Source: Escherichia coli (GTDB taxonomy: Bacteria > Pseudomonadota > Gammaproteobacteria > Enterobacterales > Enterobacteriaceae). From it: 64,000 nt of DNA. Both the position numbers and the translations under genes were made by a program. The DNA lies in NCBI RefSeq assembly GCF_024700885.2, contig NZ_CP117014.1, one strand, 5' to 3'. Position 1 is the first letter of the stretch, and each line of letters starts with the position of its first letter. Of the stretch, positions 1-58,808 are shown in pieces. Under the pieces are notes generated by a model that saw only the letters and a list, made by a program, of their open reading frames with translations, ran no database searches and had not been told where the DNA came from.

Positions 1-861
1 ATGGATAAGTCATTTATCTCTGATATTCTTTATGCTGACATTGAAAGCAAGGCTAAAGAATTAACAGTTAATTCGAACAATACTGTTCAACCTGTCGCAC
101 TTATGCGGCTTGGTGTTTTCGTCCCTAAACCAACTAAAAAACAGGGTGAAAACAACGAGATAGATGCATCATCTGTTTTTTCCAAATTGGAAATAGCTCA
201 AGCAGAAGGCTACGACAACATCAAGATCACTGGCCCTCGCTTGGACATGGATACTGATTTCAAAGTCTGGATTGGGGTAATCTACTCATTTAGCAAGTAT
301 GGCTTATCATCGAATACAATTCGCCTTTCTTTTCAAGAATTTGCAAAGGCGTGCGGATTTCCATCTAAGCGACTTGATGGGAAATTAAGAAACACGATCC
401 ACGATTCTTTAGGTCGGTTACGCAACAAAGGCATCTCATTCAAAAGAGGGAAAAGTGCTCGTGGAAGCTACAATACTGGCCTGCTTAAAACGGGATATTT
501 TGACTTTGAAACAGATGTCGTTGAACTGGAGGCTGATTCCAAGTTATGGGAAATCTTCCAGCTAGACTATCGGGTGCTTCTACAGCAACACGCACTTCGC
601 GCTTTACCTAAAAAAGAAGCAGCCCAGGCCATATATACCTTTATAGAAAGCCTCCCGGCACGTCCAATACCTATTTCATTTGCCAGAATACGTGAAAGAT
701 TAGCCTTGATGTCATCGGTAAGTGAGCAAAACAGAACGATAAAAAAAGCTATAGACCAGTTAAAAACAATAGGTTATCTCGATTGCACCATTGAAAAGCA
801 AGGTCGTGAAAACTTCATTATCGTTCACTCTCGGAATCCGAAACTTAAACCAACAGATTAA
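1..861 (+). CDS. repA: Plasmid replication initiator RepA (P1-type, iteron-binding)
   Basis: 286-aa ORF starting at window position 1; protein recognisably P1 RepA-like; immediately followed by an array of ~19-bp iterons. Confidence 0.85.
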   Translation: MDKSFISDILYADIESKAKELTVNSNNTVQPVALMRLGVFVPKPTKKQGENNEIDASSVFSKLEIAQAEGYDNIKITGPRLDMDTDFKVWIGVIYSFSKYGLSSNTIRLSFQEFAKACGFPSKRLDGKLRNTIHDSLGRLRNKGISFKRGKSARGSYNTGLLKTGYFDFETDVVELEADSKLWEIFQLDYRVLLQQHALRALPKKEAAQAIYTFIESLPARPIPISFARIRERLALMSSVSEQNRTIKKAIDQLKTIGYLDCTIEKQGRENFIIVHSRNPKLKPTD

Positions 862-2370: not shown

Positions 2371-2422
2371 CGTACCTACAACTCAAATACAAGGAGTTCC
2401 CGCCACAAGGGCGGGAAAGAGA

Positions 2423-2914
2423 TCACTCTACCCAGTTGTAAACAATACGCAGGGAAGGCTTAACGACTGCTGTTACGTCTTCGGTGGAGAAGTCCACTGC
2501 GTCGGAATACACTTTGCAGTGATAATATGTGCGGATCAGACCTTTATGGTTACCGCTATTGGATTCAGCCGCTGCCTGTAAGGTAATTTCCAGATATTCT
2601 TTGCCATATACCATTTGTTTTACGGCGGCCAGAACATCCCCTTCGATGGTTTCAGAGCAGGTAACCTGGAATTCACCTGAGTTACGCAATGGCCCGTGCT
2701 GGTTGATCTTCATGCCGCCAGGACCATAGTCTTCCACGTCTTCGCGAGTCATTTCCGGCAACTGAGTGGTACGAACAAGTACAGATAGTTTTTCGTAACC
2801 TTTAATAGTCATCCAGAATTCTGAACCAATAAGTTTTTCGCCCGCTGCCAGGTTTTTGTTCAACCGGGATTTCAGAAAAGCGATATCGGCTTTTGTATTT
2901 GCAAAACCGGACAT
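2423..2914 (-). CDS. Virion structural protein, possibly tail tube-like (163 aa)
   Basis: Size and position downstream of a large structural protein resemble myovirus tube genes; assignment is by context only. Confidence 0.3.
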   Translation of the reverse strand: MSGFANTKADIAFLKSRLNKNLAAGEKLIGSEFWMTIKGYEKLSVLVRTTQLPEMTREDVEDYGPGGMKINQHGPLRNSGEFQVTCSETIEGDVLAAVKQMVYGKEYLEITLQAAAESNSGNHKGLIRTYYHCKVYSDAVDFSTEDVTAVVKPSLRIVYNWVE

Positions 2915-2922
2915 AAATACTC

Positions 2923-3513
2923 CTACACAAAAACAGATGATATGTTGCTACGGTTAATCGAGGTGTTTCCGCTGCATTGCAGGGTTACCGTGTTATGAGT
3001 GAAATAGCCTTCCGGTGTGCGTGGGGCGTCCAGTTGGTAACTCACGCTTTTGATAACAACGTCGGTAAGGGCTATGTTCCTACCTATGTTTAACGTTACT
3101 GTCTCCGGGCGACGACCGAATGGCGCTACATTGTTCAGTTCCGGCGATTCCATCTTCAGCAATGCTGTAATGGCTGCGTTTACTTCAAGTTGCGCGTTCG
3201 TTGTCGCCATGAAATCAATTACCAGATTAAATTCAGGCGGTTGCTGACCTTCCCAAACAAGCATTGAGTTGAAGAGGGTTTTTGTTGTTACGCCGGTTGC
3301 GGTCTGAAGCGTATCTGCAAGAGAGCCAGCCGCAGCGCTAATACCACCAAGCAAACCTCCTACTGACTGGTTTTCAAATGGTGATTGCCACATTGATGAC
3401 AGTTCTGCGGTAGATCCTTCACCGATATAACCGACGACCATATCCTCTGAAGAGAGGATATAAACCTTCATTAACGGACTTATTCCGTCAGGCATTATCG
3501 CGCCGCAAATCAA
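2923..3513 (-). CDS. Virion morphogenesis operon protein, hypothetical (196 aa)
   Basis: ORF in structural operon. Confidence 0.4.
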   Translation of the reverse strand: MICGAIMPDGISPLMKVYILSSEDMVVGYIGEGSTAELSSMWQSPFENQSVGGLLGGISAAAGSLADTLQTATGVTTKTLFNSMLVWEGQQPPEFNLVIDFMATTNAQLEVNAAITALLKMESPELNNVAPFGRRPETVTLNIGRNIALTDVVIKSVSYQLDAPRTPEGYFTHNTVTLQCSGNTSINRSNISSVFV

Positions 3514-6066: not shown

Positions 6067-6345
6067 TCAGGATTGGCTTACCGTGAAGTTATCGCCTACG
6101 GTTACTTCTTTCGTAGTTGGTTCAACACTGACGGTGCTTACGCTTTTATGTGCCTCCCTAACAGTGACTGTGCACTGTGCGGTTTTATTGCCGTCATTTG
6201 TTTTGATTGTCAGCACTGCCTGCCCGACCTTAAGAGCGGTACATGTAGTGCCATCAACCCGGACAATATCAGGGTGATCTGACTCAACAGTGAAAGATTT
6301 GTCTGTTGCGTCAGATGGCGTGATAGTTACTTGAATGTTTGCCAT
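6067..6345 (-). CDS. Small Ig-like (BIG2-type) domain protein, probable virion decoration or accessory protein
   Basis: 92-aa T/V/S-rich beta-strand pattern typical of bacterial Ig-like domains; AGGAG RBS; preceded by a stem-loop at ~6358-6385. Confidence 0.4.
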   Translation of the reverse strand: MANIQVTITPSDATDKSFTVESDHPDIVRVDGTTCTALKVGQAVLTIKTNDGNKTAQCTVTVREAHKSVSTVSVEPTTKEVTVGDNFTVSQS

Positions 6346-6492
6346 TTTTTTCTCCTGAACGCCCCTTAATCAGGGGCGTGTTTTTGCCTTACTTCTGCTT
6401 TGTTTTTTTCTGTGCCTTTGAAGTGTTCGCGGCGATAGTTTCACCTTCATCTACGTCAAGTGACGTTGGTGATACCGACACGTTCGCCACCA

Positions 6493-8190
6493 TCACTTTT
6501 TTTCGTTAACCTTGCCTGTCAGCATGTCGATAGCACCTTCTTTGGCGCGAGTCAGACGCAGGCGGGTGAAGTAGTTTTCACCGTTGCGAGGATGTACTTC
6601 GTTGATGGCACTGCCCCAGAGAGTGGTACGGTTAACGAGAGACGGATTGGTTTCGTGCACGTAAGGGATTGCTGGGACTGCATCACCAGCAATCAGACCG
6701 GCTTTACCGATGCCTTCGCCACGCCCATAGAAGAAGATGTCATCCAGCCCGAAGTCATATCCCTGTGCCTGGAATTGCTCACAGACAGGTTGCGGCACTT
6801 CGTAAATACGAATCGTGCCAAACAGGGTGCCGATGTACTGTACATACGGCGACTGAACGTAACCTGGTGCGATCTGGAAGTGCTGTGGAGGCAGAGAGCG
6901 CAGGAAGTTCGCGGCGTCACCACCAGCAAAGCCGCCACGAATACCCGTTGTCAGGGTACGATTTGCCATTTCTTGAGACAGAGCGTTTACTACGTGACGC
7001 AGGAGGCCGACCCAGGACTCATAGTTTTGAGCTTCCGGCAGAGCCACATCAAATTCACGACCATAAACGGTATGGAATACCAGGGTGCGCAGACGCATGA
7101 TGTCGGTTTCATGGGAGATCCAGTTACGCATCGCGGAGAACTGAAGTGCCGCTAATTCAAGGCCGTGCTCACGGCTTAAATCGGATGCGGACATTACCGT
7201 GTGTTCGGAAGCAATTACGTACTGGGATGGACGAACTTCGTACTTACGCATAGCCTGGTTGATCACAGGAATCAGGCTTGGATTGCGCTCGATGTTAATT
7301 TCGACCTGAACAGCAATTTCAGTACCTTCTGGCGGAGCCTGGGTAAATGTAATGTCAATGACACCAGTGTCATAGGCAACTTTGGCAGTCGCTGAGAAAG
7401 CTTTACCTTTGCTGTCTTTAGCATTGAAATAAAGGTTGCCATCGCCGTCGTCAACTTTGGACGGTTTGCGGTTGATCAGCAGTTTGTTATAACCAGCGCG
7501 AAGCGGGCAGGATTGTCCCTCAAAATTTTGGATGTCGAACTGGAAGGTTTTGGTGCTGCCATCCCCTTTAGTGGAAAGGGTATACAGGCGCTTCATTTGA
7601 GAATAAACACCAGCTGACTGCATATTCAGTTCGTCACCTTGTTTGAAGGTGCCGAATTTTGTGCCTGCTACGTTGACCAGTTCATAAATATTTGACTCGT
7701 CACGATCACAAGGAACAAAAGTACAGGCATCACTGGTAGCAGCGCCCAGAGAGGCAGGCAGAATTAGAGCAGCATATTGAGCAACTTTCATTACGCCGTC
7801 AGAGCTACGCATTGATTGCGCGACAGACTCAAACATTGCCTTACCCGTGCCTTCGTGGGTATCACTGGCACATTCAGTCATCAGGCGCTCAAGAGCCATG
7901 TGTGCGTTCGCCAGGATGTCACTTGCCGGGTAATGACCATGTTGACGTTTATACTCATGCAGAGACATAGCCCACCCACCAGTGATCTGACGAGCGACCT
8001 CTGGATTTACGCCTTCAAACATAGGCACTTTCTGGATTGCTTTATCCAGGTTTTCCATCATTACTGCCTGGTCAGCAATCATGTTGCCTGCTGCATCGGT
8101 GGTCGGATCGACGGTCATAGCCATGACGCTTGCCGCCCGATTCATAATCTCGCGCTCGCGATCACGAGCTGGCTGAATGTTTTTATTCAC
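6493..8190 (-). CDS. Large virion structural protein (565 aa), possibly major head protein
   Basis: First and largest gene of the morphogenesis operon; dispersed motif copy upstream (8317-8335); P1 gp23-like by position only. Confidence 0.35.
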   Translation of the reverse strand: MNKNIQPARDREREIMNRAASVMAMTVDPTTDAAGNMIADQAVMMENLDKAIQKVPMFEGVNPEVARQITGGWAMSLHEYKRQHGHYPASDILANAHMALERLMTECASDTHEGTGKAMFESVAQSMRSSDGVMKVAQYAALILPASLGAATSDACTFVPCDRDESNIYELVNVAGTKFGTFKQGDELNMQSAGVYSQMKRLYTLSTKGDGSTKTFQFDIQNFEGQSCPLRAGYNKLLINRKPSKVDDGDGNLYFNAKDSKGKAFSATAKVAYDTGVIDITFTQAPPEGTEIAVQVEINIERNPSLIPVINQAMRKYEVRPSQYVIASEHTVMSASDLSREHGLELAALQFSAMRNWISHETDIMRLRTLVFHTVYGREFDVALPEAQNYESWVGLLRHVVNALSQEMANRTLTTGIRGGFAGGDAANFLRSLPPQHFQIAPGYVQSPYVQYIGTLFGTIRIYEVPQPVCEQFQAQGYDFGLDDIFFYGRGEGIGKAGLIAGDAVPAIPYVHETNPSLVNRTTLWGSAINEVHPRNGENYFTRLRLTRAKEGAIDMLTGKVNEKK

Positions 8191-14040: not shown

Positions 14041-15702
14041 ATGAGTGAGGCAGAAGCCCGCCCGACTAACTTTATTCGTCAGATCATCGATGAAGATCTG
14101 GCCAGTGGTAAGCACACCACAGTACATACCCGTTTCCCGCCGGAACCGAATGGCTATCTGCATATTGGTCATGCGAAATCTATCTGCCTGAACTTCGGGA
14201 TCGCCCAGGACTATAAAGGCCAGTGCAACCTGCGTTTCGACGACACTAACCCGGTAAAAGAAGATATCGAGTACGTCGAGTCGATTAAAAACGACGTTGA
14301 ATGGTTAGGTTTTCACTGGTCTGGCAACATCCGTTACTCCTCCGATTATTTTGACAAACTCCATGCCTATGCTGTTGAACTGATCAACAAAGGCCTGGCG
14401 TATGTTGACGAACTGACGCCGGAACAGATCCGCGAATACCGCGGCACCCTGACGCAGCCGGGTAAAAACAGCCCGTACCGCGACCGCAGCGTTGAAGAGA
14501 ACCTGGCGCTGTTCGAAAAAATGCGTGCCGGTGGTTTTGAAGAAGGTAAAGCCTGCCTGCGTGCGAAAATCGACATGGCTTCGCCGTTTATCGTGATGCG
14601 CGACCCGGTGCTGTACCGCATTAAGTTTGCTGAACATCACCAGACTGGCAACAAGTGGTGCATCTACCCGATGTACGACTTCACCCACTGCATCAGCGAT
14701 GCGCTGGAAGGTATTACGCACTCTCTGTGTACGCTTGAGTTCCAGGACAACCGTCGTCTGTATGACTGGGTACTGGACAACATCACCATTCCTGTTCACC
14801 CGCGCCAGTACGAATTTTCGCGCCTGAATCTGGAATACACTGTGATGTCCAAGCGTAAGCTGAACCTGCTGGTGACCGACAAGCACGTTGAAGGCTGGGA
14901 TGACCCGCGTATGCCGACCATTTCCGGTCTGCGTCGTCGTGGTTACACTGCGGCTTCTATTCGTGAGTTCTGCAAACGCATCGGCGTGACCAAGCAGGAC
15001 AACACCATTGAGATGGCGTCGCTGGAATCCTGCATCCGTGAAGATCTCAACGAAAATGCGCCGCGCGCAATGGCGGTTATCGATCCGGTGAAACTGGTTA
15101 TCGAAAACTACCAGGGCGAAGGCGAAATGGTCACCATGCCGAACCATCCAAACAAACCGGAAATGGGTAGCCGTCAGGTGCCGTTTAGCGGTGAGATTTG
15201 GATCGACCGCGCCGATTTCCGCGAAGAAGCTAACAAGCAGTACAAACGTCTGGTGCTGGGTAAAGAAGTGCGTCTGCGTAATGCTTACGTCATTAAGGCT
15301 GAACGCGTGGAGAAAGATGCCGAAGGCAATATCACCACCATCTTCTGTACTTATGACGCCGACACCTTAAGCAAAGATCCGGCAGATGGTCGTAAAGTGA
15401 AAGGCGTTATTCACTGGGTGAGCGCGGCACATGCGCTGCCGGTTGAAATCCGCCTGTACGATCGTCTGTTCAGCGTGCCGAACCCAGGTGCTGCGGATGA
15501 TTTCCTGTCGGTGATTAACCCGGAATCGCTGGTGATCAAACAGGGTTTTGCTGAACCGTCGCTGAAAGAAGCGGTAGCGGGTAAAGCATTCCAGTTTGAG
15601 CGTGAAGGTTATTTCTGCCTCGACAGCCGCCATTCTACGGCGGAAAAACCGGTATTTAACCGCACCGTTGGGCTGCGTGATACCTGGGCGAAGTTAGGTT
15701 AA
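14041..15702 (+). CDS. glnS: Glutaminyl-tRNA synthetase
   Basis: 553-aa class I aaRS with HIGH (LHIGHAKS) and KMSKS-like (VMSKR) motifs; essentially indistinguishable by eye from enterobacterial GlnRS; own terminator. Confidence 0.95.
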
Positions 15703-31363: not shown

Positions 31364-31548
31364 ATTGGCAGCCTCCTTTGACTAAGTTAAGGAGCTACCG
31401 CGTGAGGTTCCAATCTCAATGGCGGTAGCACTGACTGGGTTGGAACTACCGGCGTCAAAGGGAACCGGCCTGCCTTTCGGCAGCCCAGCCAGCACTACCA
31501 TTGATCTCTGAGCTAAACGCTACGTATGGCTGTGCGATGGCATGACAC

Positions 31549-31569
31549 AAAAAAGACGCTTTCGGCGTC
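31549..31569 (-). terminator. Rho-independent terminator (minus strand)
   Basis: GACGC-tttcg-GCGTC with A6 on plus = U6 on minus. Confidence 0.5.
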
Positions 31570-31674
31570 TGTGTCGCCTTTGACATTATCCGGGGTTCCA
31601 ATCCCGGCACCCGTTTTTCTAAGGTGCCGTAGAAATATACCCCACGATAATGCTAGGGCGCAACAGTCAGTATT

Positions 31675-54858: not shown

Positions 54859-55251
54859 CTACCAGCTAGACAAACGAACAACATGTTTCACTTTTGCGAT
54901 CCACTGTCCGCGATAACTATTGATTACGGCCTGTGCCAGCTTCAAATTGGCTTCAAAATCAGCCTTACTACCATCAGACTCCACCAGCATTCCTCCATCT
55001 ATTTCTGGTAAACATAGATAATCCTGCTCAACCTGCAGCGGCATTGATGGCTCTCTGAATGGGGTTACTTGCTCTGCTTTCCAGCGAAATCTAACCCTTA
55101 TCCCCCTGGTGGTCATTACTAGATAGCCTGTTATAGTGCTTTTATGGCCCACATCAGTACGCGTGGCATTGCATGACTCGATCTTACAGTTAGCGATAGA
55201 CCACTCCATATTGGTGGCCTGTTGAGTGCTTAATTTGGTAGTCCCGTACAT
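54859..55251 (-). CDS. Hypothetical protein (130 aa)
   Basis: ORF, stop/start coupled to upstream gene. Confidence 0.4.
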   Translation of the reverse strand: MYGTTKLSTQQATNMEWSIANCKIESCNATRTDVGHKSTITGYLVMTTRGIRVRFRWKAEQVTPFREPSMPLQVEQDYLCLPEIDGGMLVESDGSKADFEANLKLAQAVINSYRGQWIAKVKHVVRLSSW

Positions 55252-55826
55252 CAGAAAGCCTCCCAGTCAGTCGCGATAATATCCACACCAGTTGCAAACC
55301 AGTCTGTCTGCGCCTGTAAATCCCCATTCATCATTACCAGGCGAGGCATCACCATCACATCGCACCCTTCCACAATATCGAATGCCTCTTCCGGCAAGAA
55401 TTCGAAGAGCTTTTCTTTGCTGCCAATACTGCCACGGAACATCGATATATAGCTCCCTTTGGGCCATGATGTCCGCCGGGCATCAAGCCCTTTCATCATC
55501 CAGTAAAAAGCCGAGGAAAAAGGGATATTCTTTTTGCCAATGATTACATTATTCGCTTCTGTGTATTTCAGGAACTTAACTAACCTTACCATTGACTCGG
55601 ATAACGCAACGTATGGCTCATGATTGATTGCTGACACGCTTACACCGTGCAATCCAACGCTTACCACTGTCATATCGCCGCTCTGTGCGGTTTCGATATT
55701 GACGCCTTTGCGAACTAATGAGGCGTAAATTTCCTCTCGCTTTTGGGTCCAGCGTTCACGCTTCCCTATGAAGTCACTCAAAATGAGATCTTCTTCTGTA
55801 TATGCGTTATCGTTCGCCATTAACAT
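55251..55826 (-). CDS. Hypothetical protein with DUF2829-like C-terminal region (191 aa)
   Basis: ...FYWMMKGLDARRTSWPKGSYI...VDIIATDWEAF resembles the G-K-x-x-R-x-x-W and D-l-l-A-x-D-W pattern of 47164 protein. Confidence 0.35.
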   Translation of the reverse strand: MLMANDNAYTEEDLILSDFIGKRERWTQKREEIYASLVRKGVNIETAQSGDMTVVSVGLHGVSVSAINHEPYVALSESMVRLVKFLKYTEANNVIIGKKNIPFSSAFYWMMKGLDARRTSWPKGSYISMFRGSIGSKEKLFEFLPEEAFDIVEGCDVMVMPRLVMMNGDLQAQTDWFATGVDIIATDWEAF

Positions 55827-56278: not shown

Positions 56279-56354
56279 TGGTGGCCCCTACCGGACTTGA
56301 ACCGGTGACCGTGCGATTATGAGTCGCCCGCTCTAACCACTGAGCTAAAGGGCC
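56279..56354 (-). tRNA. tRNA with CAU anticodon (Ile2/Met-type)
   Basis: Reverse complement gives 76-nt cloverleaf ending CCA, anticodon loop CTCATAA; very similar to E. coli ileX from memory. Confidence 0.8.
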
Positions 56355-56783
56355 AGATTACTGTTAATTACGCTTACGCTTTTTGCCAGAACCGCGTAAG
56401 GCTTTTGCCGCTTGCTCTACCCCGTATGCAACCACCAGCAGAAACAATAATGTCCACTCCGGGTTTTTATCGGCAAACGCCCAAAAATCCATCACTTGCA
56501 GCCACCTTTTAAGACAAAACGCCATTGCTGTTAGGTTGCGGTGCCGGGCGCCTCCCGGTGACGTTAACCAGTTAACAATTAACGCCGGATCACTTATGGA
56601 TTCTCGTTACGCCAGTAAAAAGACCACCTTTACTGTTTTAACTGTTCCGCGTGCGCTTAGCCGCATTCACCGCAATGGTAAGAGCATTTGGCTGACTGGG
56701 CGGCGATGACGCCTGTACGCATTTGGTGATCCGGTTCTGCTTCCGGCATTCGCTTAATTAGCCAAATACCCTTAATGTTGCAC

Positions 56784-56870
56784 TGGCGGAGAGTAATGGA
56801 ATCGAACCATCATCGCTTGCGCAATGGGACGGTTTTCAAGACCGCTTGAGCACCATGCTCCCTACTCTCC
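56784..56870 (-). tRNA. tRNA-Ser (UGA), type II with long variable arm
   Basis: 87 nt, acceptor GGAGAGT/ACTCTCC, anticodon stem GCGGT/ACCGT, loop CTTGAAA, T-loop TTCGATT, 3' GCCA. Confidence 0.7.
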
Positions 56871-57324
56871 CGTTATTGTGGCGACCGGTGCTGATCTCCG
56901 GCTTGCGGTTATTTCAGACTCTCACGGGCGTTTAATTGCCCCGCCGAACAGCTCTTTTCCGCAATAGCTGCAATGTCTTTCGCGCATCAGCCTGCGCATT
57001 CACCACAATGTTGAGAACACTGGTTGTCACGCTGCAACGCAACATTTATTCGTAGATTGGGATATGACCCCGTTACGCCAGTGTTCTCAACGTTGTAGTG
57101 CCGGTTACGGTTCCGGCCAGACCTCTTCCTCAACGGGGTGTTCTCCATACGGACTACCGTTTATTGGTCGTTCCTGCGGTTTATGTTGTGAAGCCAGATG
57201 CTTATCTTCTGGTTGCTTCAAAGAGCTGCACTTCATCACAACGGTAAGAGCATTTATGGCTCGCATCGCGGGAAAAAGCCCACGGTAGAGAGTCGAACTC
57301 TACAAATGCTCTTACCTGTTGTGT

Positions 57325-57400
57325 TGGTGCCGGTTAACGGGATCGAACCGCTGACCATTCGCTTACAAAGCGACTGCTCTACCAACTGAGCTAAACCGGC
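57325..57400 (-). tRNA. tRNA-Thr (UGU)
   Basis: 76 nt, acceptor GCCGGTT/AACCGGC, D-arm GCTCAGTTGGTAGAGC, loop TTTGTAA, T-loop TTCGATC, CCA. Confidence 0.8.
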
Positions 57401-57404
57401 AATT

Positions 57405-57491
57405 TGGTGGGGAGTGATGGAGTCGAACCACCCGAGTCGCAATGACAGTAGATTTACAGTCTACCCCGCTACCCCTACGGACTAACTCCCC
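57405..57491 (-). tRNA. tRNA-Tyr (GUA), type II
   Basis: 87 nt, acceptor GGGGAGT/ACTCCCC, anticodon stem GTAGA/TCTAC, loop CTGTAAA, CCA. Confidence 0.75.
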
Positions 57492-57496
57492 TAAAT

Positions 57497-57573
57497 TGGC
57501 GATGGTGGGTGGATTCGAACCACCTACCGAAAGCTTAGAAGGCTGCTGTTCTATCCTACTGAGCTACACCATC
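57497..57573 (-). tRNA. tRNA-Arg (UCU)-like
   Basis: 77 nt, acceptor GATGGTG/CACCATC, loop CTTCTAA as in E. coli argU, T-arm GGTGG-TTCGAAT-CCACC, CCA; one mismatch in anticodon stem. Confidence 0.6.
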
Positions 57574-58808
57574 ACTTGCCGGGTACGTCTCCGGCGAGGG
57601 CTTCCACCTCCGTATGCTTTTCGGCGCACCGCGCCCTGGCTGCAATTCGGTAACAGGGGATGCACAACCCTGGCTTCCAGCGTGATTAGCGCCTTCAGCA
57701 TGACGGGATATACCCGTTACAAGAAGTTCTCCCAGGATGCCATTAAGCAATGGCTGTTACGCGGGAAGGACGCAACAGGTAAGGGCGCTGACCAGAAAGA
57801 CCTGACCCTTCTCATTCATCTGGTTAATCACACCAGCGCCCTTGCCTGTTATGCCTCCCCGTTCCCTAATACACAGACGGGGACACTCTGCGGTCGATTT
57901 TTTTGACGGGGGACGACTCATACCCCGTGGCGTCTGGCTTCTTAGGCCGCTACCATCATCAGATCATCGTTTGCATTTACTTTAATGGTCAGTTTCTAAA
58001 CCGCCGCAAAGTCGCTAACCATGACGAAAACCCTAAAAAAGCCCACCCGAAGATGGGCAAATACGCTACATCTCACACAAGAAAGAAGCCGACTGCCTGA
58101 GCTGGATTCACTTTCAAATGCCCGCTGAAAGGGATCACAAGTCGGCTTCTTTCTTGATGCGGCACTCTCTCCGCCCGTCACCGCTCTGTCTCGGTTGTCG
58201 CGTTTGCCACGCCAGCCGTAACGAGGTTTAAAGTCTTTACACGTTTCCATCACTCGACTGCCGTCTGTGGCTGTTCGTTGCAGCGGGGGTGCCTCCCCCT
58301 GGGGATATCCCCGGCCTTACCCCATTCTTTCAAGACACAATGCAAGGCCACATCCGCATAGGTGCATTACCGCAACATTAAGGAGACTCAGGGCAAAAGG
58401 TAACCGCCACAAAAATCCCTATGCCTCCTTAATGTTGAAGATGTGCATTGATGATTAGATGCAGCATGTACCGTTACTCTCTGCCGGACCATCATCAATG
58501 AACACCTTAAAAAGACCTTCCGTGGCTCAACATGTATTGTCGTTTACTCCGCAAAGTGCTCTCTCTGAAACCACTTTCCGCACTAAACCTGCTGAACTTT
58601 GGCCTGCACGGTGCCAAAGCGTGCTCTTGCATTACTATACATTTCTAACACTTTAATTTGTTAAATGCTGGTGGGCGAACAATAACCAATAAGTGACTAT
58701 CAAGCCCAGCAAGCGAAACGTGGGTACCGCCCACCAGCAAGGAAAATTCTATGTTAAGTTATCTTCACAATCAATACATTCGAATTGTGATTTTAGATTT
58801 CTAACACA

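Follow-up and report, generated by a model that had tools for sequence, protein, structure and literature searches.

A 64,000-nucleotide stretch of the Escherichia coli contig NZ_CP117014.1 (RefSeq assembly GCF_024700885.2), referred to below as the window, carries a cluster of five tRNA genes, all on the minus strand: tRNA-Arg with the anticodon UCU (slot 1, 57497..57573), tRNA-Tyr with GUA (slot 2, 57405..57491), tRNA-Thr with UGU (slot 3, 57325..57400), tRNA-Ser with UGA (slot 4, 56784..56870), and a gene with the anticodon CAU (slot 5, 56279..56354). The coordinates, the strand, the anticodons, and the CCA encoded at the 3' end of all five had been reported in an earlier note made from the sequence alone, and each was reproduced by ARAGORN or by a check of the sequence. 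ARAGORN accepts all five cloverleafs with the same anticodons and predicts no other tRNA gene in the 64 kb. The general tRNA model of Rfam (RF00005, threshold 29 bits) detects the Thr, CAU, Arg, and Tyr genes at 67.2, 66.7, 55.1, and 41.9 bits, respectively. The Ser gene is missed by this model because of its non-canonical 8/4 geometry, described below; the Rfam model for selenocysteine tRNA (tRNA-Sec, threshold 47 bits) gives it 43.5 bits, under the threshold.

The element in the window is assigned to the D6/P1 family of phage-plasmids, an assignment based on the presence of a C4 antisense RNA, of homologues of Lpa, PmgS, and terminase (pacA) that adjoin the array, and of a glnS gene, together with the high identity of the array region to that of family members. 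Over 2.3 kb round the array, the sequence is 99.7% identical to the E. coli plasmid NZ_CP066033.1; the same region matches phage D6 with 92% identity over 87% of its length and P1 with 88% identity over ~58% of the query. In the RefSeq copy of NZ_CP066033.1, the Prokaryotic Genome Annotation Pipeline (PGAP) labels the same five genes tRNA-Ile, Ser, Thr, Tyr, and Arg. DNA related to the array region occurs in ~780 RefSeq E. coli replicons and in ~1,070 PLSDB plasmids. Phage tRNA arrays that follow the codon bias of the phage itself are textbook knowledge. Because such arrays are well established and the same array is already annotated in RefSeq, the five-gene cluster as such is an ordinary phage feature; the mosaic gene in slot 1, in which an asparagine tRNA appears to have become an arginine tRNA, is the only angle with some novelty. 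The modular, slot-by-slot evolution of the array and the placement of its Ser gene in the (8/4) class also exceed the routine.

Identities of the CAU and serine tRNA genes

The earlier note had left undecided whether the CAU gene encodes tRNA-Ile2 or tRNA-Met. The gene is 89.5% identical to E. coli ileX compared to 71.4% for the elongator gene metT, and 98.7% identical to P1 trnI, which is a tRNA-Ile2 in the P1 record. Its acceptor stem (GGCCCTT...AGGGGCC) has C4-G69 and C5-G68, the two acceptor pairs required by E. coli TilS (PMC1635315). The D stem (G10 C11 U12 C13 / G22 A23 G24 C25) pairs C11 with G24 and U12 with A23, and the D-stem signature of initiator tRNAs (A11-U24 and G12-C23; criteria in PMC1635315) is not present. 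PGAP calls the equivalent gene tRNA-Ile. At the level of sequence, the similarity to ileX, the TilS pairs, and the PGAP label settle the identity as Ile2 rather than Met, and C34 is predicted to be converted to lysidine by the TilS of the host.

ARAGORN draws the Ser gene only if one nucleotide is left to separate the acceptor stem from the D stem. In the resulting geometry, the acceptor stem has 8 bp and the D stem 4 bp, the latter with a loop of 5 nt; the variable arm (CCCATTGCGCAAGCGATGA) is long, the T stem has 4 bp, and the base before the CCA is G (discriminator G73). Seryl-tRNAs of this (8/4) class, in which the 12-bp acceptor branch is split 8/4 instead of 7/5, have been reported in "certain bacteria and their phages" and are reportedly accepted by seryl-tRNA synthetase (SerRS), for which the relevant elements are the serine anticodon, G73 (or U73), and a variable arm of the long type (Mukai et al., Nucleic Acids Res 2017, PMC5389517). 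The gene is 98.9% identical to its counterpart in D6, for which the tRNAscan-SE annotation in the D6 record could not assign an amino acid, 92% identical to that of Vequintaviruses, and 62% identical to host serT.

Covariation points to the same structure. In 54 distinct phage Ser(UGA) genes from IMG/VR, picked by a pattern of the anticodon arm and T loop, the eighth acceptor pair, between the base that follows the seventh acceptor nucleotide and the base just ahead of the 3' acceptor strand, is formed in 49 (AT 24, GC 13, TA 4, CG 3, and G.U 5), and the canonical 49-65 pair is mismatched in 17. A formal count over 40 distinct homologues finds the eighth pair (columns 8-27) formed in 35 (AU14, GC11, UA4, CG3, and UG3), with 21 double-sided changes, whereas the competing 49-65 pair is formed in 25 of the 40, with 2 double-sided changes. 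By these features, the window gene is placed in the (8/4) tRNA-Ser class. A selenocysteine tRNA was considered and rejected: the anticodon UGA of the window gene reads UCA, whereas UCA is itself the anticodon of tRNA-Sec. The score under the tRNA-Sec model, which in a relative's copy of the gene reaches 48 bits and clears the threshold, is explained by the 8-bp acceptor geometry that the two have in common.

Codon usage and the function of the array

Codon usage in 57 long open reading frames (ORFs) of the window (15,122 codons) was compared to that in 69 ORFs of E. coli K-12 (25,343 codons), taken from the chromosome stretches that hold the host tRNA genes. In the element, AGG shows the strongest enrichment (7.1x), followed by AGA (3.9x), AUA (2.8x), CGA (2.6x), ACA (2.4x), and UCA (2.3x). 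The codons that pair by Watson-Crick rules with Arg-UCU, Ile2, Thr-UGU, and Ser-UGA thus rank 2, 3, 5, and 6 of 61, and a rank-sum permutation test gives P=4e-5 for these four codons, or 9e-4 if Tyr (UAC, rank 29) is included. The earlier note had proposed codon usage as a check on the array; the expected excess is borne out for AGA, ACA, UCA, and AUA and is lacking for UAC. Since AGG, AGA, AUA, ACA, and UCA are among the six most enriched codons, four of the five tRNAs are explained by supplementation of rare codons, which is the best-supported function for these genes.

Based on these data, the array is likely to be a tRNA region that tops up scarce decoding capacity of the host for the rare-codon-rich genes of the element. 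In such a model, the five tRNAs would presumably be transcribed together with the surrounding minus-strand genes and released by host RNase P and 3' processing enzymes. They would rely on the host for modification and charging, with TilS and then IleRS acting on Ile2, and with ArgRS, ThrRS, SerRS (which accepts the 8/4 form), and TyrRS acting on the others. Ile2 would then serve AUA, Arg-UCU would serve AGA/AGG, Thr-UGU ACA, and Ser-UGA UCA. With A/T-ending codons and rare codons prevalent in the genes of the element, the tRNAs would raise the decoding capacities that are scarcest in the host.

Several points weigh against this interpretation. The tyrosine codons are not enriched (1.05-1.18x), which leaves one of the five genes unaccounted for, and CGA, enriched 2.6-fold, has no cognate tRNA in the array. 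The K-12 reference set consists of only 69 ORFs, called mechanically. The Arg gene of this particular copy may be non-functional for reasons given below, in which case AGA/AGG supplementation would not operate in this element. A sigma-70 scan shows no promoter between the upstream terminator and the array, and the C1 operator consensus ATTGCTCTAATAAATTT has no match at three or fewer mismatches anywhere in the window. Finally, we infer the expression, processing, and charging of the array, as well as its benefit to the phage.

The upstream terminator is an intrinsic-terminator-like hairpin on the minus strand (58041..58058; GCCCATCTTCGGGTGGGC followed by TTTTTT), which closes the upstream unit and marks the point at which homology to the P1 tRNA region stops. 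The sole site in the sigma-70 scan lies at 58774-58746, upstream of a terminator. Regulation of the P1 type, through the promoter Pban and the C1 operator Oban, was considered for the array and rejected: because the operator is absent and P1 homology ends at the upstream terminator, this control is not transferable to the window element. P1 also annotates a "dicF-like region" upstream of its tRNA genes; a search for a DicF-like RNA gave no match in the window even at E<=1.

The Tyr gene, alone among the five, is not explained by codon usage, and it brings a different role into consideration. Its product belongs to the type-II tRNAs, in which the variable arm is long, and the gene is 100% identical in Ro157c2 and across the family. 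Identity to host tyrU, from which its D and variable arms differ, is only 66%, compared to 93% for the Tyr gene of the strictly lytic Vequintaviruses. Host tRNA-Tyr is a documented nuclease target: it is attacked by PtuAB of Retron-Eco7, from which phage T5 tRNA-Tyr rescues infection (PMC11555353), and a further report describes cleavage of the tRNA-Tyr variable loop by Septu (PMC13096335). In a comparable manner, T5 tRNA-Lys neutralises the PARIS system (PMC10802454). The array could thus serve counter-defence, with some or all of its tRNAs, Tyr above all (and Asn in relatives), replacing host tRNAs destroyed by abortive-infection nucleases during infection or induction, either by sheer abundance or through tRNA bodies unlike those that the nuclease recognises; the gene directly downstream of the array, which encodes a Tad2-like anti-defence domain, would fit such a role. 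An activity of PARIS against tRNA-Asn or tRNA-Thr was considered and dropped, as the preprint text consulted mentions only tRNA-Lys.

The anticodon loops bear on this proposal. Four of them (Ile2, Ser, Tyr, and Arg) have the same sequence as the loops of ileX, serT, tyrU, and argU, and only that of Thr differs (U32 compared to C32), so that a signature of escape in the anticodon loop is mostly absent. Furthermore, four of the five anticodons follow the codon bias of the element, which a pure defence model does not predict. Counter-defence, in either of its two modes, is regarded as doubtful, although it is compatible with codon supplementation rather than exclusive of it, and it is plausible for Tyr.

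Exchangeable slots and the arginine gene

Re-prediction of tRNA genes in relatives and a comparison of 30 complete arrays drawn from IMG/VR, PLSDB, and RefSeq place the window array in a family of related arrangements. P1 contains only Asn, Thr, and Ile2/CAU, on re-prediction as in its record (Asn-Thr...CAU), in agreement with the earlier note; D6 has Asn-Thr-Ser...CAU, and Ro157c2 has Asn-Tyr-Thr...CAU. Slot 1 holds either Asn or Arg, Tyr and Ser may each be present or absent, Thr occurs as one of two alleles, and CAU is always last. The array is made of exchangeable slots, of which at least nine combinations circulate in the family: nine architectures were found among the 30 complete arrays, and that of the window, Arg-Tyr-Thr[Ro allele]-Ser-CAU, accounts for 5 of the 30. 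For four of the five window genes, copies with 100% identity occur in numerous independent contigs, the spacers of which vary. A particularly close relative, NZ_CP035876.1, is 99.3% identical over the 2.3 kb, yet its slot 1 still holds Asn.

The window Thr gene carries the "Ro" allele, which is 97% identical to the gene of Ro157c2, 86% to the P1/D6 allele, and 75% to host thrU. The Ro allele has U32 and a G27.A43 mismatch at the top of the anticodon stem, whereas the P1/D6 allele has C32 and a perfect stem. Aligned to each other (window 57325-57400; locus L001, 4200-4275), the two alleles have their acceptor and D arms in common and differ in the anticodon stem as a block; the T stems are identical, and the remaining differences amount to two T-loop bases and one acceptor base. 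The pattern suggests a second, smaller case of internal block exchange within a tRNA gene.

The larger case is the Arg gene. The slot it occupies holds tRNA-Asn in P1, D6, and Ro157c2. Over the 68 nt that precede slot 1, the window agrees fully with the Asn-bearing D6 and Ro157c2 and differs by one base from P1, and the spacer downstream of Arg, like the Tyr gene, matches Ro157c2. For the gene itself, identity to host argU and to the Arg gene of Vequintaviruses reaches only 64-65%. Among its best 40 matches in 50,697 phage records, those that are annotated and full length are all tRNA-Asn, with identities of at most 80.5%. Agreement with the Asn genes covers the first 15 nt and the last ~27 nt, and only the central ~35 nt contain differences.

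A contig of a metagenomic phage, L014, carries an Arg-UCU gene with the same centre and unrelated stems; its tRNA genes precede a holin-lysozyme-spanin cassette in the style of lambdoid phages. Compared by segment, the family Arg allele matches the Asn gene of Ro157c2 at 7/7 positions of the 5' acceptor strand, at 8/8 positions of the 3' acceptor strand with the discriminator, and at 16/17 positions of the T arm, compared to 20/34 in the centre. With the Arg gene of L014, the counts are 2/7, 2/8, and 12/17 for the same outer segments and 32/34 for the centre. The junctions fall in TAGCTCAG and in GGTCG, which are common to both parents. Other candidate donors of the centre fit worse than L014: an E. 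coli prophage Arg gene matches at 29/34 positions, argU and the Vequintavirus Arg gene at 26/34 each, and 933W argO and argN at 25/34 and 24/34, respectively. The exact L014-type Arg gene was not found in complete E. coli genomes. On the basis of these segment identities, the Arg gene is read as a mosaic that combines the acceptor stem, G73, and T arm of an Asn gene with the D arm, anticodon arm, and variable loop of an Arg gene.

The identity elements of E. coli ArgRS are A20 in the D loop and C35, with contributions of U36 and a purine at position 73. In the window gene, the D loop AGUAGGAUA agrees with that of argU (AGUUGGAUA) in having A20, and UCU and G73 serve as anticodon and discriminator. 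The imported block thus brings the A20 D loop and C35, and it removes the GUU anticodon that determines Asn identity. Among the 61 codons, AAC (Asn) takes rank 31, and AAC/AAU are not enriched in the element, indicating that a conversion from Asn to Arg exchanges a little-needed tRNA for the most-needed one.

In the favoured reading, slot 1 was converted from Asn to Arg-UCU by replacement of only its centre, from the D loop through the variable loop, with that of an Arg-UCU gene of lambdoid-phage type, after which the window copy gained two stem-breaking point mutations. The chances are judged to be even that the gene represents a natural alloacceptor remoulding by internal gene conversion, in which a single step, favoured by selection for the most over-used rare codons of the element (AGA/AGG), turned an Asn identity into an Arg identity. 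With the same even weighting, the Asn acceptor stem, discriminator, and T arm would have been kept and, with them, the position and processing context of the gene. We infer both the direction and the mechanism of the conversion. The family Arg allele is absent from the collection of 50,697 phage records; it occurs in ~85 PLSDB plasmids at 90-99% identity and in 18 IMG/VR contigs, together with either Thr allele and with or without Tyr and Ser. Whether it now spreads by recombination among at least five array architectures is a question on which the evidence is finely balanced.

The variability of the slots could also be taken at face value, with tRNA genes persisting as neutral cargo or recombination scars, that is, as short conserved crossover points whose exchange reflects hitch-hiking without benefit. 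The nine slot combinations are what such a view would expect, as are the location of the Arg junctions in segments that tRNAs have in common, the concentration of the Thr differences in the anticodon stem, and the 92-93% identity of Ser and Tyr to genes in unrelated lytic phages. However, the genes stay intact with compensatory changes across divergent phages, four of them are preserved without a single difference over many contigs in which the spacers vary, and the fit of the anticodons to the codon bias goes far beyond chance. Neutral persistence is considered improbable.

It is important to note that the window copy of the Arg gene departs from the family allele. A mismatch in its anticodon stem, which the earlier note had observed, is real: the cloverleaf shows C28.U42 with an adjacent G27.U43. 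A second mismatch, C11.A24 in the D stem, was found in addition. Compared to NZ_CP066033.1 and the family allele, these result from two private substitutions on the minus strand, G42->U at 57531, which breaks the anticodon-stem pair C28-G42, and G24->A at 57549, which breaks the D-stem pair C11-G24. They are the only differences from NZ_CP066033.1 across 56871-58800; one further change from the family allele, in the variable loop, is common to that closest relative. The double-mutant allele was not found in IMG/VR (19 contigs), PLSDB (with its ~85 plasmids that carry the allele), INPHARED, 5,426 complete E. coli genomes, or the GTDB representative genomes.

The predicted cost to the fold is large. 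In the family allele, the stems are intact and the cloverleaf is the minimum free energy (MFE) structure, at about -27.5 kcal/mol and with an ensemble probability of 0.44. In the window gene, the cloverleaf is predicted at -14.3 kcal/mol, a loss of 13 kcal/mol, is no longer the MFE structure, and has an ensemble probability of about 1e-7, figures that derive from nearest-neighbour energies leaving out modifications and tertiary contacts and hence represent a prediction. The Rfam score of 55.1 bits compares to 69.7 and 72.1 bits for intact alleles, a fall of 15-17 bits. The copy is thus probably weak, hypomorphic, or decaying, unless the two bases are sequencing errors.

A stronger form of this conclusion holds that the gene is dead or dying (or misread), so that the element effectively has four working tRNAs and the mismatches reflect decay, not design. 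That both substitutions are private, and that each destroys a Watson-Crick pair intact in the family allele, argues for it. On the other hand, the gene still scores well over the 29-bit threshold; the folding of tRNAs is aided by modifications and tertiary contacts, and single stem mismatches are tolerated in many natural tRNAs. In addition, 2 differences in 77 nt, set against a background of 23 in 3.8 kb, are no significant excess alone. On balance, this stronger form is slightly favoured for the window copy.

Neighbouring features and known systems

Apart from the array, the window contains a C4 antisense RNA of the kind that acts in P1 immunity (31418-31505, minus strand; Rfam, 77.1 bits) next to an isrK-family RNA (31549-31627, minus strand; 62.7 bits). 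Side by side, the two correspond to the ImmI immunity region of the P1 type and confirm the element type. A full-length glutaminyl-tRNA synthetase gene lies at 14041-15702 on the plus strand (TIGR00440, glnS; 1067 bits compared to a cut-off of 426), yet the array contains no tRNA-Gln. The presence of glnS has already been reported as typical for D6-like plasmid prophages (PMC6799933).

The genes neighbouring the array are co-directional with it. Directly downstream, a coding sequence (CDS) of 191 aa (55251..55826, minus strand; phrog_7362) contains a domain resembling Tad2 (Thoeris anti-defence 2) at residues 103-190. The label comes from Pfam PF11195 (E=4.4e-9), and the RefSeq product name agrees; a search of NCBIfam gave no match to the CDS, and its N-terminal half is without a match. 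Between Ser and Ile2, a small ORF (56364..56495, minus strand; RefSeq CDS WP_255097511.1, hypothetical protein) encodes a product of 43 aa when read from an internal ATG; its core is hydrophobic and its tail basic. It sits where tciB/tciC lie in P1 and D6, and family searches gave no match. An ORF of 75 aa that runs opposite to the array on the plus strand (57682-57906; RefSeq WP_000622155.1; phrog_27020, E=2e-51) lies just upstream of Arg, roughly at the place of upl/plp in P1.

The spacers of the array contain further features. Between Ser and the small ORF, positions 56537-56674 (minus strand) give a match to the small RNA STnc100 at 39.1 bits, below the threshold of 47 (E=3e-6; model positions 31-147 of 206), and the stretch may represent a structured RNA or an element involved in processing. 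A 25-nt direct repeat (TGCTCTTACCATTGCGGTGAATGCG on the minus strand, and variants) occurs four times in the spacers between 56040 and 57252. Directly after the Thr gene, at 57243-57316, a 13-bp inverted repeat (GGTAAGAGCATTT / AAATGCTCTTACC) surrounds a hairpin resembling a T arm (GTAGAG-TTCGACT-CTCTAC), and the two may be the relic of a lost tRNA gene or the boundary of a Ser-containing cassette.

In P1, the tRNA genes trnA (Asn), trnT (Thr), and trnI (Ile2), part of the C1-controlled ban operon, form a homologous segment with the same order of slot 1, Thr, and Ile2. In contrast to the three tRNAs of P1, the window has five, with Arg for Asn in slot 1 and Tyr and Ser added, and the tciA/plp/upl genes that P1 carries between Thr and Ile2 are missing. 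The flanks differ as well: the window array lies between pmgS and the Tad2-like/lpa/pacA genes, whereas that of P1 lies between dmt and ban, and the segment with the Pban promoter and the C1 operator is not in the window.

D6 and the D6-like plasmid prophage pYU39_89 have the same surroundings as the window array, with pmgS upstream, orf6/orf5/lpa/pacA downstream, an 8/4 Ser gene, Ile2, and glnS elsewhere on the element. Compared to the window, D6 has Asn in slot 1, lacks Tyr, carries the other Thr allele, and has kept tciA/tciB. For pYU39_89, four tRNAs have been published, namely Asn, Thr, Ser, and "Met" (PMC6799933). The D6 record NC_050154.1 (positions 6084-7850) gives three tRNA genes on the wrong strand and omits the CAU (Ile2) gene, which was found by both ARAGORN and Rfam at positions 2982-3057 of the locus. 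These annotation errors deserve flagging, as do the "tRNA-Met" labels common in records of the family. More generally, phage-plasmids of this kind occur commonly in E. coli and Salmonella from clinical sources and from livestock, the family illustrates how tRNA arrays evolve as sets of exchangeable slots, and its translation cargo of five tRNAs and glnS may affect how well the elements express in different hosts.

Vequintaviruses (rV5-like phages) carry a cluster, Arg-Tyr-Ser-(odd Lys)-Thr-Met-Pro, that is similar to the window array in anticodon set and order. Their Ser and Tyr genes are 92-93% identical to those of the window, far closer than the host genes, whereas their Arg, Thr, and CAU genes are unrelated alleles (64-72% identity). 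These phages are lytic, with genomes of 140 kb and a tightly packed array, in contrast to the spacers of ~450 bp in the window. In the Vequintavirus Mangalyan (locus L004), the odd "tRNA-Lys" (2377-2475, minus strand) is 99 nt long and is folded by ARAGORN only with a 4-nt anticodon (atcc); it is possibly intron-containing or otherwise aberrant. The same locus has a group I intron (334-612, minus strand; Rfam, 83.8 bits) between two pieces of the terminase large-subunit gene.

The (8/4) seryl-tRNAs described by Mukai et al. (PMC5389517) resemble the window Ser gene in the 8-bp acceptor stem, the 4-bp T stem, G73, and the location in a phage tRNA cluster. The phages in that study came from marine and alpha-proteobacterial metagenomes, and a search of its text found no mention of Enterobacterial phages such as P1/D6-type elements or Vequintaviruses. 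With the assignment made here, the class is placed in well-studied E. coli phages, both P1/D6-type plasmids and rV5-like phages, in which it would be easy to study.

The ileZ-argN-argO genes of lambdoid phages of the 933W Shiga toxin (Stx) type, together with L014, supply the same pair of rare-codon specificities (AUA and AGA/AGG) from the late region of a phage. Of these, the L014 Arg-UCU gene has the central positions in common with the P1-family allele, as detailed above, and argO much less so. Both 933W and L014 have Arg acceptor stems and T arms of their own, and these elements are unrelated to that of the window.

Finally, switches of tRNA identity through alloacceptor remoulding or anticodon shifts have been described in mitochondria, in Drosophila, and in other eukaryotes (PMC4783518, PMC3923123); a literature search found no earlier identity change by block swap in a phage tRNA gene. 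The Arg gene resembles these cases in that a syntenic tRNA has changed its identity and is nearer to the Asn family than to tRNAs with its own anticodon. Classical remoulding proceeds by duplication and a point mutation in the anticodon, whereas here an internal block of ~35 nt, which includes A20, appears to have been swapped in from another tRNA gene in a phage-plasmid. The mosaic gene would thus represent a clean, datable change of identity by an internal block swap and offer a natural test case for the transplantation of identity elements.

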